From: a virus
Direction: 5' to 3' (one strand)
IMG/VR virus record: IMGVR_UViG_3300002835_000013
Length of the DNA: 64,000 bases
Shown here: positions 21,268-48,586 of the stretch, in pieces
Layout of the letters: every line of letters starts with the position of its first letter
Numbering within the stretch: the first letter of the stretch is position 1
The notes under the pieces: generated by a model
The model's input: the letters and a program-made list of their open reading frames with translations, nothing else
Told to the model about the DNA's origin: nothing
Databases searched by the model: none
Made by a program: the position numbers and the translations under genes

Positions 21268-21581
21268 AAAGGTGATTTTTCTGTTTCGAGGAAAACCACC
21301 AAACCCAATGAACTTACGCTGCTAGAGCGAAGTCAAATGGTACATTGTCGTTTGCTGCACCTGCAATTTGCCTTTGGTCTCCTTACGACCTTACTGTATC
21401 CCGTCGAACCTGTTCGCCCCCATCAAAGATACACTGTTGGACCCTCTGTCTTGTTCCAACTTTTCTCATAAAGAGTTGCGGGTTCCTATCTTTTCAGTCT
21501 AGGCAGTGTATCTATGATGGAGGCGGTGGGAATCGCACCCACGTCCAAGAAACCTATATTTCGTCTCTCAACGACCTCGGC
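21268..21581 (-). ncRNA. ssrA: tmRNA, circularly permuted two-piece form
   Basis: T-arm GTGGG-TGCGATT-CCCAC plus CGCCTCCA (ends 21518) precedes 5' GGGGGCG (starts 21421) with the Ala G3.U pair; tag frame ...ANDNVPFDFALAA-stop (21355-21314); terminal hairpin plus T run. Confidence 0.93.
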
Positions 21582-21591
21582 AATTCTATTT

Positions 21592-21754
21592 ATCGTCTCC
21601 ATCAAAGATACACTCTTAGCGTCAAAGTGATGGACTTGAACCATCATACCTTTCTTTGATATTCAGATATACCGAACGTTACGATATACCCTTAGTCGGC
21701 CAACTCGCTATGTTAGATAATTAGTCTAACGAGTGTATCCATGATGAAGACGAT
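21592..21754 (-). ncRNA. Unknown structured RNA closed by a ~24-bp helix, containing a T-arm-like hairpin
   Basis: Arms 21592-21615 and 21731-21754 are complementary; TGATGG-TTCAAGT-CCATCA hairpin; own TATAAATA promoter at 21763-21770; no credible ORF. Confidence 0.7.
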
Positions 21755-21765
21755 TCCAATTCTAT

Positions 21766-22050
21766 TTATAATGGGGCGAAGGTTTTATTGTGACCGTCGA
21801 TTGATAATGTGACTGCTCCAACGTAGCCACATTCTTTTGTTCCTGGAATGGAAAACTCACCGCTACCATGCCAGTGAAATGTAGGAGCGTTACACTCACC
21901 GCCGTTAATAGAAACCAACGAAACATCCATCACCTTCTTTGCTTTACAGTGGATGATATGGCTATCGCTAGCCTTCTTATCGCATGATATATCATCCGCT
22001 GCCATTGCTGTTCCACTCAATAATGATAATAATACTACAATCCGTTTCAT
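21766..22050 (-). CDS. Small secreted Cys-containing protein
   Basis: Signal peptide MKRIVVLLSLLSGTAMA; four Cys. Confidence 0.65.
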   Translation of the reverse strand: MKRIVVLLSLLSGTAMAADDISCDKKASDSHIIHCKAKKVMDVSLVSINGGECNAPTFHWHGSGEFSIPGTKECGYVGAVTLSIDGHNKTFAPL

Positions 22051-30633: not shown

Positions 30634-32090
30634 TTAAGCAGCCTTAGGCTTATTATACCACATATCTTTGTAATCTTCAAGGTTCATTGTGCCCATTCGA
30701 GTGTTATGTTCCGCACGAACCATCCGAATGTTGCTACGATCATTGGAACCACCTTCATCAAGTGGAACAATGTGTGCAGCATGAGCATCTTTGAACTTGA
30801 GCGGCTTACCATCAATATAGCATTTGTTATCCTGACTCTGTAGAATTTGCTCACGCAATTCCTTGGTAAGGGTTTTGCGTGATTGTTTCACAACAAGAAT
30901 ACCATCTTCAATAAGGGTATCACAGTCCATAAAGCGATTTTCGATCCACTTGATATTATCAAGCCAACGATTTACGCTACCCTTACCGTGATTGTCTTTG
31001 AACATGGCAAAGCGATTGCGCTTTTCTTTGCTGTTATCATAACCATTGAGTAGCTGCAACGCATAGGCATCAAAAGTGTCTTTATGAAAGCGGATCCAGG
31101 CAAGACGGAACTGATCATAGTATCTATCCATGTCAGTAATCTTGAACGAGTCATAACGAGACTGATAAGTGAACCATAACCGAATAAGCATGATGCATTC
31201 ATCTTCGGTCATTTTCGCCTTAATGTCTGCTAACTTGTTTTCTGCCATTGCAAAAAGAAAATCAAGAACCTCTGTGACTTTCTTTCGCATAATGTCAGCC
31301 TGAGCCTGTGTTATGTTAGTATCATAATACATCTTTTCAATGTCAGGATCATCCACATTGCATGGCTTGGAACCATTATACACGATAGTAGCGATGCGAG
31401 CAACCAGACGATCATAAGTCAGACGATTAGGAGTGAACGTCAACCATTCACCAATCGTATCACCCTGGGTACCTTGCTTAACATCGAAAAGATCGTGACA
31501 GAAAGTCTTGGTCTTACGATCGGTACGAGCCAACTGACGAATAAGATTGGCAACAGGAACATCGCCAACGCCATTTACCTGCTCTTGATGATTAAGAGCC
31601 GTAAAGTTATTCGAGGTAGCCCACAGCATCGCTTTCTGTGTCGGCGACAGATTACGATAGATCACGATACGAACCTTGAAATTAAGGAACATATCACGTT
31701 CTTGGTCGGTCAAATCCGAATATTGCTTGTAACCGATCATCTTAGTTTCATAAGGATTGGTACAAAACTCTCCACGAAAGAATGCTCGGATCGCACGTTT
31801 GCGATGACCACCATCGATGGACTCATACTTTTCACGATACTTTAAACGCTCTTCTGGAGTGCGCTCATTGATCTTGATTTCACCAATGTCTGTGCCTTTA
31901 AAGATAGAAGACACGATACCCTGCCGTTTCGTGGCAGTCTTCTTCTTATCAGACTCAAACTTATCGTTGGTCGTATCAATTCGCTGATGGACAGGAAGGA
32001 CATCAATGTCCGCCATTAGATCGATAAGTTCTCGAATGGTGATGATTTTCATCTCCCATTCCATAAGATTTCTATCATAAAGCGAACTCA
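30634..32090 (-). CDS. DUF262 (ParB-like) plus HNH protein, GmrSD-like
   Basis: P.HQR, SIDGGHR, F...N motifs; C-terminal HIVP...GG.N...N.....HN; start codon uncertain. Confidence 0.72.
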
Positions 32091-32148
32091 TGCGGGAGAT
32101 TTGCGAAGACGTAGACATTATATATTATCCTTTCACATTCAATTTATA

Positions 32149-34331: not shown

Positions 34332-34356
34332 TTTACCCCTTCACATTCTATGTTTA

Positions 34357-34424
34357 CTAAATAGTAATGTCCGTCACGGTGTTGACGCACCCACGGACTC
34401 TAATACTGTATAGGAGTATCAGCA
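34357..34424 (+). promoter_or_regulatory. Late promoter plus two-hairpin leader occluding the RBS of the HNH gene
   Basis: CTAAATA; GTCCGT/ACGGAC, GGTG/CACC and ATACT/AGTAT helices. Confidence 0.75.
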
Positions 34425-35024
34425 ATGTTATTTATATCCAACAAGTATACCACTTGGTATTTCTCCCTTATAGAGAATCGCAAATCAACTATTCCAGAAG
34501 GATATGTTGAGAAGCATCATATTATCCCCAAATCTATCGGAGGAACCGATGACTCCGATAATCTTGTCGCATTGACCGCAAGAGAACATTTTTTAGCACA
34601 TTGGTTACTAACCAAAATGACTAAAGATAATGAACAAGTAAAAATGAAACATGCTTTGGGTGGAATGACTGGTAATAATCACAATGGAAGGACTCTATCA
34701 TCTTATCAATATGCGATTTGTAGGCAATCATTTAGTGAAGCACGAAAAGGCGTTATTTCACCCCATATGCTAAGATCGGGTGAAGATCATCATATGTTCG
34801 GAAAGAAAAGACCAAGACAATCACTCCTTATGAGCGGTGAAAATAATCCAAACTATGGCAAGTTTGGTGAAAATCACCACTGTTATGGTAAGAAACATAA
34901 AGACGATAGGACAGAGAGAATGACTAAAACTTTACAGTCATTAGGCAAACTACCCTGTCCTAACTGTGGCGAAATGATTTCACCGTTGAACAGTCAACAC
35001 AAAAGACGTTGTATCAACCTTTGA
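34425..35024 (+). CDS. Free-standing HNH homing endonuclease with NUMOD3-like repeats
   Basis: EKHHIIPKS.GG.D...NLV.LTAREHF.AH.LL; SGENNPNYGK. Confidence 0.9.
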   Translation: MLFISNKYTTWYFSLIENRKSTIPEGYVEKHHIIPKSIGGTDDSDNLVALTAREHFLAHWLLTKMTKDNEQVKMKHALGGMTGNNHNGRTLSSYQYAICRQSFSEARKGVISPHMLRSGEDHHMFGKKRPRQSLLMSGENNPNYGKFGENHHCYGKKHKDDRTERMTKTLQSLGKLPCPNCGEMISPLNSQHKRRCINL

Positions 35025-36240
35025 TGTTGACCACCTGACGGAGACGGTGGACAATCTCAACAAGGTCATCCTGGGCAGCCATGACCGCACCGATATCCTT
35101 GTAAGCAGCCGGCGACTCGTCGATAACATCGGCATCCTTACGGCACTCGATACCCTCGGTCGCCTTGATATGATCCTCTAGCGTGATAGCCTTACGTGCC
35201 GCATTGCGAGACATACGACGACCAGCGCCGTGAGAACATGAACAAAACGACTCATGATTACCAAGACCACGAACGATAAACGAACCCGTTCCCATCGAAC
35301 CCGGTATGATACCGAGGTCGTTCTTACGAGCCCGAACAGCACCCTTGCGGGTCACATACACATTTTCTCCAAAGTGGTTCTCCTTGGAGATATAGTTGTG
35401 ATGGCAGTTCACAGCCTTTTCGTCAGATACAACGAATGCCGGCAAACGCCCACGAAGAACCTTTAGCACAGCGTCCATCATAACCTGACGGTTGAGGGCA
35501 GCAAACTCCTGTGCCCACGATACAGCCTCCACATAATCATCGAATAGCGTCGTGTTTTCTACCAGATAGGACAAGTCCTGATCCGGCAGATACGGCAAGA
35601 TATGATAGCGTTCCATCTCACGCTTTGCAGCTTCGATGAAATACTGACCTATCTTGTTACCAACACCACGAGAACCAGAGTGTAGCATTACCCACACATA
35701 GTCGGCCTCGTCCAGACACAATTCGATAAAGTGATTACCCGTGCCAAGCGTTCCCATAAACTCGAAGGTCTTATGAGAAGCAATCTTCGGATGCTTTGCT
35801 AAGATAGCGTCATAACGAGACTTCAACACCGCCCAAGCATCTATGGCAGAACGGGACGCAAAGTTCGAGTTCCACGTTCCTTCGTCGTTCTTACCACCGT
35901 TGTCCGTGCGACCATGCGGCACTGCGGCCTCGATAGCAGAACGAAGCGGAGCAAGATTATCCGGTAAATCGTTCGCCGTCAGTGACAAGCGAACAGCCAT
36001 CATACCGCAACCGATATCAACACCAACCGCAGCCGGAACCACAGCACCCTTCGTTGCTATAACAGAACCAACCGTAGCACCCTTGCCAAGATGAACGTCC
36101 GGCATAACCGCTACATGCTTATACACGAACGGCAAGGACGCTATATTTTCCAACTGCGTGCGAGCGTCGGCTTCGACCTCAACACCTTCGCACCACATCT
36201 TGAGCGGCGCACCACGACCTTGGACGAACTGATAAGCCAT
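35014..36240 (-). CDS. rtcB: RtcB RNA ligase
   Basis: MPDVH.GKGA.VG, VGVDIGCG, GTLG.GNHFIE, HSGSRG, HHNY, PGSMG, SHGAGR. Confidence 0.97.
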   Translation of the reverse strand: MAYQFVQGRGAPLKMWCEGVEVEADARTQLENIASLPFVYKHVAVMPDVHLGKGATVGSVIATKGAVVPAAVGVDIGCGMMAVRLSLTANDLPDNLAPLRSAIEAAVPHGRTDNGGKNDEGTWNSNFASRSAIDAWAVLKSRYDAILAKHPKIASHKTFEFMGTLGTGNHFIELCLDEADYVWVMLHSGSRGVGNKIGQYFIEAAKREMERYHILPYLPDQDLSYLVENTTLFDDYVEAVSWAQEFAALNRQVMMDAVLKVLRGRLPAFVVSDEKAVNCHHNYISKENHFGENVYVTRKGAVRARKNDLGIIPGSMGTGSFIVRGLGNHESFCSCSHGAGRRMSRNAARKAITLEDHIKATEGIECRKDADVIDESPAAYKDIGAVMAAQDDLVEIVHRLRQVVNIKG

Positions 36241-47565: not shown

Positions 47566-47631
47566 GTTTACCTCATTGTCTTATATAATAGCAGAATCAT
47601 TTTGGAATGTCAAGTGAAAAATCTAAAAACG

Positions 47632-47698
47632 CTAAATAGATGTAGGTCGCAGGATTGCCGTCCTCACCTACTCTAACGCTAAACAGGAGCGCCAGCAT
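47632..47698 (+). promoter_or_regulatory. Late promoter plus two-hairpin leader of the GIY-YIG gene
   Basis: CTAAATA; GTAGGT/ACCTAC, AGGA/TCCT and CGCT/AGCG helices. Confidence 0.75.
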
Positions 47699-48193
47699 AT
47701 GTCTTACTATATATACGCCTATATTCGTCAAAACGGAACTCCCTATTATATCGGTAAAGGAAAAGGTAAACGAGCCTGGAGTATTCATCCTGGTGTTTCT
47801 GTTCCTAAAGATCCTTCTCGCATAGTCATAATGGAATCAAACCTAACTAATGTGGGCGCCTGTGCTTTGGAGCGCCGATATATTAGATGGTTCGGTCGCA
47901 AAGACCTCGGCACTGGTATTCTCATAAACAGAACCGAAGGAGGTGATGGTAATACTAGTCCTCGTTCCGACGAATGGAAAAAAGAACATAGTGTAAAAAT
48001 GTCAGGATCTAATAATCCTATGTTTGGTAAAACAAGAAAACCCATTGATCGTTCATATATGAAAACCGAAGAATATCGTAAGAAGATAAGTGAAGCAAAG
48101 AAAGGTAAACCTAATCTAAAACTCCGTGGTCGTGTTTTCACCGAAGAATGGAAAAGAAAGATTAGCGAGTCCAAGAAGAAACCCTTACTTTAG
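47699..48193 (+). CDS. Free-standing GIY-YIG homing endonuclease with NUMOD3 repeats
   Basis: [16 protein letters not shown]...R, E...[29 protein letters not shown]. Confidence 0.88.
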
Positions 48194-48586
48194 TGCTTTC
48201 ACATGAGTTCGCCTAACTCTCAAAAAAATCCAATCGTTATAATAGTCCTCGGAAATCAAAGCGTTTCGGTCAAACTGTTCCTTCGCTTCCATATACGAAG
48301 CCTCGCCTTTACTCTTACATAGATAGAGGATTTCTCTTGTGAACTTTTCTTTGCCGAATAGATCAACATGCGAAAGGAGTTCTTTGTTTGAACCATAGTA
48401 ATCCAGCCAATCCGAATCAACCTGTTTCTTCACTCGCTTACCTTTTCTCTTGGTGCTGCGAGTGAAACGAAACAGTTTCTTGCCTACATATTTCTTATCA
48501 GTGACCGTGTTTGTTATCAGATAAACAAACGCCACATATCCATCTGGTATTTCAGTAAGTGGTTCTTTGTTGTATGTCCATGCCAT
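48185..48586 (-). CDS. Seg-like GIY-YIG protein
   Basis: FVYLITN....KKYVGKK, W..YYGS, F.REIL, YYN. Confidence 0.85.

Follow-up and report, generated by a model that had tools for sequence, protein, structure and literature searches.

A portable 5' module of homing endonuclease cassettes in uncultivated T4-like phages, apparently encoding a cis-antisense RNA

The DNA analysed here, called the window throughout, is the 64,000-nucleotide stretch of IMG/VR virus record IMGVR_UViG_3300002835_000013. The presence of a gp6-type baseplate wedge identifies it as part of a T4-like myovirus, and among cultured phages its gp6 comes closest to that of Pelagibacter myophages (34-39% identity). An earlier reading, made from the letters of the DNA and here called the sequence-only reading, had described two plus-strand nuclease genes in minus-strand surroundings, each preceded by a look-alike leader. 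The gene map agrees with this arrangement, and both leaders were found at the positions given, by reading the sequence and aligning the two copies (copies A and B, Table 1). They share one order of elements, namely CTAAATAG, a 6-bp helix (P1), a C-R-C bulge, a 4-bp helix (P2), a single C, TCTAA, a third helix with the AGGAG Shine-Dalgarno (SD) sequence (P3), CAGCA and ATG. The helix changes between the copies had been called compensatory, and this was confirmed for P1, P2 and P3. The apical loop TTG(A/C)CG, which had been considered as kept, is not conserved across the wider family.

The two cargo genes had been assigned as HNH and GIY-YIG. The first assignment was confirmed by Pfam. For copy B, Pfam calls only NUMOD3, and the GIY-YIG part depends on a motif (N-terminal YIYAY...YYIGKG), on PHROG families and on related proteins, as the product clusters with relatives that match SegE_GIY-YIG. 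A second GIY-YIG gene of the SegE type (PF19835, 1.4e-33) is found at window positions 48185-48586 on the minus strand, which is the host strand there. It is kept in relatives that do not have cassette B, and its top PHROG hit carries the annotation 'NAD synthetase'. It has no module, so that use of the cassette is not universal among the nuclease-like genes here. Similarly, a 494-aa protein with a C-terminal HNH/endonuclease VII-like domain (PHROG ~1e-8), encoded at 30634-32118 on the minus strand, has no module.

Table 1. Positions of the features of the two module copies in the window.
Feature	Position	Strand	Basis or remark
Copy A, putative sense late promoter CTAAATA	34357-34363	+	Sequence read; relatives show [A/C]TAAATA including TATAAATA
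Copy A, P1	34369-34374/34393-34398		Sequence and two-copy alignment
Copy A, P2	34378-34381/34388-34391		Sequence and two-copy alignment
Copy A, P1/P2 hairpin	34369..34398	-	11 bp on minus strand including G-Y pair 34376/34392; covariation
Copy A, P3 as plus-strand helix	34404-34407/34415-34418	+	Holds AGGAG 34412-34416
Copy A, P3 extended	34400..34422	-	8 bp on minus strand vs 3-4 bp on plus; encloses SD AGGAG
Copy A, CAGCA, then ATG	34420-34424; 34425	+	Sequence read
Copy A, putative inverted late-promoter box	34429..34436	-	TATTTATA on plus (codons 2-4); perfect TATAAATA on minus (34436 to 34429)
Copy A, predicted cis-antisense RNA	34357..34423	-	About 60-67 nt; two hairpins and U-rich tail; ends predicted from promoter spacing and U-rich tail
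Copy A, cargo: HNH + NUMOD3 homing endonuclease gene, 199 aa	34425..35024	+	Pfam HNH 2e-5, NUMOD3; PHROG 655 homing endonuclease 6e-44
Cassette A insertion (module + HNH gene)	34348..35032	+	Absent from close relatives
Copy B, putative sense late promoter CTAAATA	47632..47638	+	3-nt spacer; predicted +1 at 47644, inside P1
Copy B, P1	47642-47647/47666-47671		Sequence and two-copy alignment
Copy B, P2	47651-47654/47661-47664		Sequence and two-copy alignment
Copy B, P1/P2 hairpin	47642..47671	-	Middle pair 47649/47665; covariation and fold
Copy B, P3 extended	47673..47695	-	Encloses SD AGGAG 47685-47689
Copy B, CAGCA; ATG	47693-47697; 47699	+	Sequence read
Copy B, degenerate or shifted antisense box	47702..47716	-	TCTTACTAT instead of TCTATTTAT; TATATATA at 47708-47715
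Copy B, cargo: GIY-YIG-like + NUMOD3 homing endonuclease gene, 164 aa	47699..48193	+	NUMOD3 1.5e-9; PHROG 15526, 10829, 314 (homing endonuclease, 4e-7)
Cassette B insertion (module + GIY-YIG-like gene)	47618..48203	+	Absent from one relative

Both window copies are the 5' edges of insertions of 0.6-0.7 kb, with the edge 9-14 nt from the module, and the comparison of filled and empty alleles that had been proposed found empty alleles for both. Site A is empty in L059, L061 and L073 (172-kb genome), where the equivalent of window position 35033 is joined directly to that of 34347 and RtcB abuts a 37-aa ORF. Insert A starts 9 nt before the promoter, and its far end re-supplies the last six RtcB codons (VLNVKG becoming VVNIKG). 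Inspection of window positions 35014-35032 and 34332-34356 places the HNH insertion within these six codons, with the HNH ORF overlapping the RtcB 3' end by 11 nt. Where the site is empty, the 37-aa ORF has its SD and start within an overlap with the RtcB stop (GGATAAAATG), so that insertion A uncouples the two genes.

Site B is empty in G001, which does not have ~47618-48203 and has the flanks joined with ~10 nt between them; insert B starts 14 nt before the promoter. In G003 (L106:2107-2694) the same site contains an unrelated 195-aa minus-strand ORF and no nuclease cassette. Site B is thus a variable hot spot. By eye, the 195-aa product looks like a 2OG-Fe(II) oxygenase. The intergenic region of site B separates the glutaredoxin gene from the SegE-like gene, and in L028 it is occupied by a related GIY-YIG cassette that points the other way; in a blastn comparison with window positions 47618-48203, the flank matches are inverted relative to the cassette.

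The edges of the module were also seen in an all-against-all blastn of the ±3 kb around modules, in which most pairs are similar only from 0 to ~+79, position 0 being the C of CTAAATAG and ~+79 the fourth codon. L002 and L021 share flanks and module and have different HNH cargo, and modules that are 90-95% identical head an HNH gene (window copy A), a GIY-YIG gene (L041) or NUMOD3-only genes (L050; L030 compared with window copy B). Relative to their neighbours, 26 cassettes are antisense and 21 co-oriented (60 contexts), which makes the cassettes autonomous units. As in free-standing homing endonuclease cassettes, presence or absence at a precise site between conserved genes was found for both A and B, and both genes combine a nuclease with a DNA-binding module (HNH and NUMOD3 in A, a GIY-YIG-like N-terminus and NUMOD3 in B). 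One of the two interpretations offered by the sequence-only reading, the end of a mobile expression cassette that swaps nuclease cargo, is therefore strongly supported by the empty alleles, by the similarity limited to 0 to ~+79 and by the near-identical modules with unrelated cargo. Both sites are copies of a portable module of ~80 bp that forms the 5' end of free-standing homing endonuclease gene (HEG) cassettes in uncultivated T4-like phages.

Many further covarying homologues, which the sequence-only reading had called for, were found in IMG/VR. A strict pattern confined to the conserved blocks, with any base allowed in the helices, matched 50 loci, and the relaxed pattern, without the promoter requirement, more than 119. 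Together, pattern and covariance-model searches gave more than 170 further copies, 138 of them distinct. The covariance model, built from 31 distinct copies, matches only copies A and B in the window (95 and 85 bits); on the relaxed-pattern loci it gave 123 matches in 100 loci, with up to three per contig. Four near-complete genomes of 162-172 kb carry one to three copies each according to the same model. The cargo ORF starts 0-2 nt past CAGCA and nearly always encodes a homing endonuclease, of which there are several unrelated kinds. These include two HNH types, several GIY-YIG types and a NUMOD3-only family, along with zinc-finger proteins and proteins of unknown kind, and PHROG homing-endonuclease families also dominate a second cargo set of 87 clusters. 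Tabulation of the downstream genes thus bears out the expected diversity of nuclease cargo (HNH, GIY-YIG, NUMOD3-only). A few modules are solo or head decayed ORFs. Solo modules were seen at L173:8803-8889, L185:7706-7793 and L151:126-210, with an intact head and a nuclease ORF cut to 4-15 codons; the one in L151 lies directly 5' of a terminase-large-subunit-like ORF.

A gathering-threshold scan of the window with Rfam 15 detected the tmRNA alone and the motif matched no family, so that the earlier proposal is not refuted on this point. Permissive Rfam E-value scans of the site and three related loci gave no relevant match. In cultured phages, no match was obtained by megablast/blastn of the region and three module variants against 50,697 phage records, or by the covariance model against Pelagibacter phages Mosig and HTVC008M and cyanophage P-TIM40. 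A scan of genome_contigs gave a single match, to a 2.2-kb MAG contig. The motif is not mentioned in the text of Fremin et al. 2023 (PMC10690425), whose catalogue of 10,006 viral candidate RNAs could include it.

The helices are well supported by comparison. In a MAFFT alignment of 31 distinct relatives, 98.8% of cells pair and double changes are found in 10 of the 14 pairs, while slid controls of the same alignment pair at only 30-50%. These helices are also recovered by RNAalifold without guidance. Among 107 other distinct copies, which form an independent set, pairing was 94.5% with double changes in all 14 pairs, P1 and P2 being paired at 98.3% and 97.3% with abundant covariation. Chance is excluded as the source of the shared architecture. 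P3 behaves differently on the plus strand, where its outer pair fails in 59 of these 107 copies; only the last AG of AGGAG is paired there, in a helix of 3-4 bp, and the energy of the region is ~-2.5 kcal/mol.

Covariation by itself does not give the strand on which a structure forms; the wobble pattern does. When 23 pairs are scored in the 138 distinct copies, 88.1% of cells pair if the plus strand is read and 99.3% if the minus strand is read. The cells that are not Watson-Crick comprise 300 A·C, which are G·U on the minus strand, against 10 G·U, and every one of these 10 falls at the innermost P2 pair, the least secure part of the alignment. Of the 300 A·C cells, 190 sit in pattern-fixed bases (CTAA/CAG), which leaves about 110 A·C against 10 G·U at free positions. 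For the 'internal loop' pair R26/Y43, the counts in the plus-strand reading are GC 84, AC 31, AT 23 and GT 0; this pair is thus always formed on the minus strand, and the state forbidden there is never used. Similarly, the P3 outer pair is CA in 60 copies, TA in 44, CG in 31 and TG in none, although the search pattern allowed TG. With CUAA/YCAG added, P3 reaches 8 bp on the minus strand.

Folding predictions point in the same direction. The RNAalifold consensus is -23.33 kcal/mol with 18 pairs for the minus strand and -16.98 kcal/mol with 14 pairs for the plus strand, and a 19-pair minus-strand structure is 99.1% paired. For the predicted minus-strand RNAs, folding gives a pair of neighbouring hairpins (z-scores -1.9 to -3.6), and the predicted antisense RNA of copy A folds in this way at -17.7 kcal/mol. 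Single-sequence hairpin energies differ little between the strands and are uninformative for the choice. Strand-biased mutation is an unlikely cause of the wobble pattern, because the cassettes sit in both genome orientations. By these comparisons, the fold that is conserved agrees with an RNA of the strand complementary to the nuclease gene. The other interpretation of the sequence-only reading, a cis-regulatory leader folded in the mRNA, is consequently not the best one: the wobble pattern, the 4 additional base pairs of P3 and the internal-loop pair fit only the opposite strand.

Promoter-like boxes are found at both ends of the module. In the wider set, the first box is TATAAATA, GATAAATA, CATAAATA or CTAAATA, and NATAAATA/TATAAATA is the late-promoter type of T4-like phages (PMC2984593). 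In the window, [A/C]TAAATA occurs at only 22 sites on both strands, many of them just upstream of genes including the tmRNA gene, and the inverted box of copy A is one of the 22. The tmRNA gene (21270-21610, minus strand; permuted, alpha-type, Rfam 90.9 bits) is preceded by a late-type box GATAAATAG (21587-21593, minus strand), with a predicted +1 at 21581, 5 nt before the start of the Rfam model. A second box, TATAAATAG (21763-21769, minus strand), lies 176 nt upstream of the first. These boxes suggest that late promoters drive small RNAs elsewhere in the phage.

Between the first box of the module and P1, downstream of it, there are 3-5 nt in 125 of 128 copies, and exactly 5 nt in 83. Under the T4 rule, which we assume to apply here, a 5-nt spacer puts +1 on the first base of P1, at 34369 in copy A. 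At the other end, 102 of 110 copies have TATTTA at a distance of 8-10 nt from the first C of CAGCA, and in 80 of 110 the inverted box is anchored at 9 nt; the anchor is CAGCA and not AUG. Read as its reverse complement, ATAAATA, the box shares the core of the sense promoter. TATTTA occurs in all three reading frames (ATG nnT ATT TAT, ATG TAT TTA and ATG ATA TTT AT). Of 85 copies, 78 use ATT as codon 3 (background 39%, p = 1e-24) and 79 use TAT as codon 4 (background 74%). A conserved MSIY peptide was ruled out, as the position of the box is kept in three frames and at synonymous sites; by this codon pattern, the apparent MSIY N-terminus is a nucleotide signal rather than a peptide signal. The position of this inverted late-promoter box in codons 2-4 also speaks against the leader as originally proposed.

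By the same T4 spacing rule, again taken as an assumption, RNA from the inverted box of copy A would start at ~34423, one base before the 8-bp helix. The consensus antisense box is missing from copy B and from roughly 15% of copies. With its degenerate box (TCTTACTAT, with TATATATA six bases on) and its 3-nt sense spacer, copy B may be a weakened or decaying form of the module. The minus strand beyond the second hairpin is rich in U (on average 6.4 in 12 nt, e.g., ACUUUUAUUUAU), and this tail is the complement of the sense promoter. The U-tract starts 4-6 nt past the stem in CTAAATAG-type copies, the window copies included; the bulged hairpin was not called by a simple terminator scan. A sigma70 scan gave nothing above shuffled sequences. 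We also considered an I-TevI-like read-through mask, in which RNA of the promoter pairs at long range with the TATTTAT box. It was rejected, as inspection of the listed copies showed no covariation of the base that follows TAAATA with the one that precedes TATTTA, and half of the cassettes also receive no sense read-through.

The best explanation of these data, to which we give a probability of roughly 0.6, is a portable module with face-to-face late promoters that makes a cis-antisense RNA over the SD and AUG; promoter activity, transcript ends, termination and repression are all predicted from the sequence. The sense promoter would make the HEG an autonomous late gene, transcribed from the foot of the first hairpin onwards. 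The inverted box, perfect in copy A and degenerate in copy B, would fire back over the leader and give an RNA of about 60-70 nt. The 5' part of this RNA would form the 8-bp hairpin, with CCU in the loop opposite the SD, followed one nucleotide on by the 11-bp hairpin with two bulged G and by the U-rich tail, which is probably a terminator. Such a cis-antisense RNA would be fully complementary to the SD and start region and most likely limits the translation or stability of the nuclease mRNA, with promoter interference possibly added to this effect.

An alternative that we regard as unlikely is that the element works as a sense-strand cis-regulatory leader. The helices would then act in the nuclease mRNA, P1/P2 being a 5'-terminal stabiliser from +1, P3 presenting or partly masking the SD, and the AU-rich box being a translation enhancer. 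The mRNA must indeed contain these bases and can form most of the same helices, and P1 and P2 are 97-99% Watson-Crick on the plus strand too. Moreover, the 5-nt spacer of the 83 copies puts +1 on the first paired base, and leader hairpins are known at T-even HEGs (PMC2988022). This reading does not account for the direction of the mismatches, since the plus strand never uses a G·U that would mismatch on the minus strand, yet it has at least 110 A·C cells at free positions. In about half of the copies the plus-strand form of P3 has just 3 bp, and in 31 of 138 the 'internal loop' has no pair on that strand. The box keeps its distance from CAGCA rather than from AUG and is identical to a late promoter in inverted orientation. 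A role of the sense strand, for instance as a 5' stabiliser, may exist alongside the antisense RNA.

Less probable still is a bidirectional promoter/terminator insulator, PeSL-like in spirit, in which the minus-strand hairpin and U-tract stop incoming transcription and the inverted promoter mainly restarts late transcription of the neighbour, with no antisense regulation. The U-rich tail after the minus-strand hairpin would suit such a role, as would the minus-strand host genes immediately beyond the module in both window copies and the solo modules that persist after nuclease loss, one of them directly before a terminase gene; T4 HEGs are also known to carry promoters for their neighbours (PMC2988022). 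In the approximately half of cassettes that are co-oriented, however, the inverted promoter faces the 3' end of the upstream gene and no minus-strand host transcript enters. A terminator straight after the promoter would also defeat promoter donation, and the conserved bulges, P3' helix and linker are unneeded for a terminator. Finally, a DNA-level element kept for cargo exchange or homing, either as a hot spot of recombination or as a hairpin in single-stranded DNA of the minus strand that a protein or nuclease recognises, is very improbable: it would agree with the sharp homology edges and cargo swapping at the module, with the recombination mediated by PeSL cassettes (PMC2839356) and with the pairing pattern, as G·T is the least disruptive mismatch in DNA hairpins too and a minus-strand ssDNA hairpin would give the same one, but recombination needs identity while the helices here diverge freely with pairing kept, and the SD, AUG and two promoter-like boxes at fixed spacing point to expression signals.

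Returning to the cis-antisense RNA, it is possible, though doubtful, that it also acts in trans. The module would then be an orientation-independent 'plug-in' for selfish nucleases, whose copies sense each other through conserved single-stranded segments. Multicopy inhibition would set in as the phage DNA replicates, the covarying stems would tune cognate versus non-cognate pairing, and the module would serve as a recombination handle for cargo exchange. Homing endonucleases would in that case be under a shared RNA network, an undescribed layer in the control of homing.

Homing endonucleases are the main selfish elements of large phages, and the known controls of their genes, which come from T4, are idiosyncratic hairpins and autorepression. 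Here, one homologous control module, apparently encoding an antisense RNA, is common to hundreds of unrelated nuclease genes. If the cis-antisense reading is correct, homing endonucleases carry a common and transferable regulatory system, which would explain their insertion in either orientation without reliance on host promoters and would represent a compact natural cassette of late promoter and antisense control.

Several known systems resemble parts of this module. In cyanophage S-PM2, a T4-like phage, the antisense RNA CfrI was experimentally detected opposite a homing endonuclease gene; it is ~225 nt long and links the nuclease gene to psbA (PMC2984593). CfrI is not a portable 5' module common to nuclease families and is a loose precedent. 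PeSL cassettes of T4-type phages have early sigma70-like promoters with an AT-rich upstream region, and an upstream stem-loop terminator on the same strand (PMC2839356, PMC4122927). Like the module, they are small repeated cassettes of promoter and stem-loop at junctions of modular gene exchange in T4-like genomes, and in our data homology ends at the module edges, with different cargo behind like modules. The promoter box of the module is, however, of the late type, [A/C]TAAATA, and its hairpin lies downstream of the sense promoter instead of forming a same-strand terminator before it. PeSLs also flank ORFans on both sides and contain no SD, AUG or inverted second promoter.

The T-even HEGs I-TevI, I-TevII, I-TevIII and segB, and mobE of Aeh1, have hairpins that sequester the ribosome-binding site and an internal late promoter (PMC2988022). 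As the T4 late promoter is inside the hairpin, late transcripts escape occlusion, and each hairpin is idiosyncratic (PMC2988022). Common to both systems are homing endonuclease genes driven by late promoters, RNA structure around the SD and restricted nuclease expression, the first and the last being predictions for the module. The analogy with these occluding hairpins, drawn in the sequence-only reading, fails in its defining geometry because the late promoter of the module lies upstream of all the helices. In addition, plus-strand pairing covers just half of the SD of the module, a single homologous element is used by many nuclease families, and the fold fits the opposite strand.

The predicted architecture is like that of RNA-IN/RNA-OUT of IS10, in that a selfish enzyme gene has a back-facing promoter at its 5' end. 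In IS10/Tn10, the outward-facing promoter in the 5' end of the element gives RNA-OUT, a structured antisense RNA of ~70 nt that is complementary to the translation initiation region, blocks ribosome binding and can act in trans (PMC5006887). The two have no sequence or Rfam relationship. In the module the gene is a homing endonuclease of a lytic T4-like phage, both putative promoters are late-type TAAATA boxes, and the RNA, predicted from sequence, has two hairpins and overlaps the whole leader. As for the stable, structure-selected fold of an IS10-type antisense RNA, the minus-strand fold of the module is 99% paired and has the corresponding G·U pattern.
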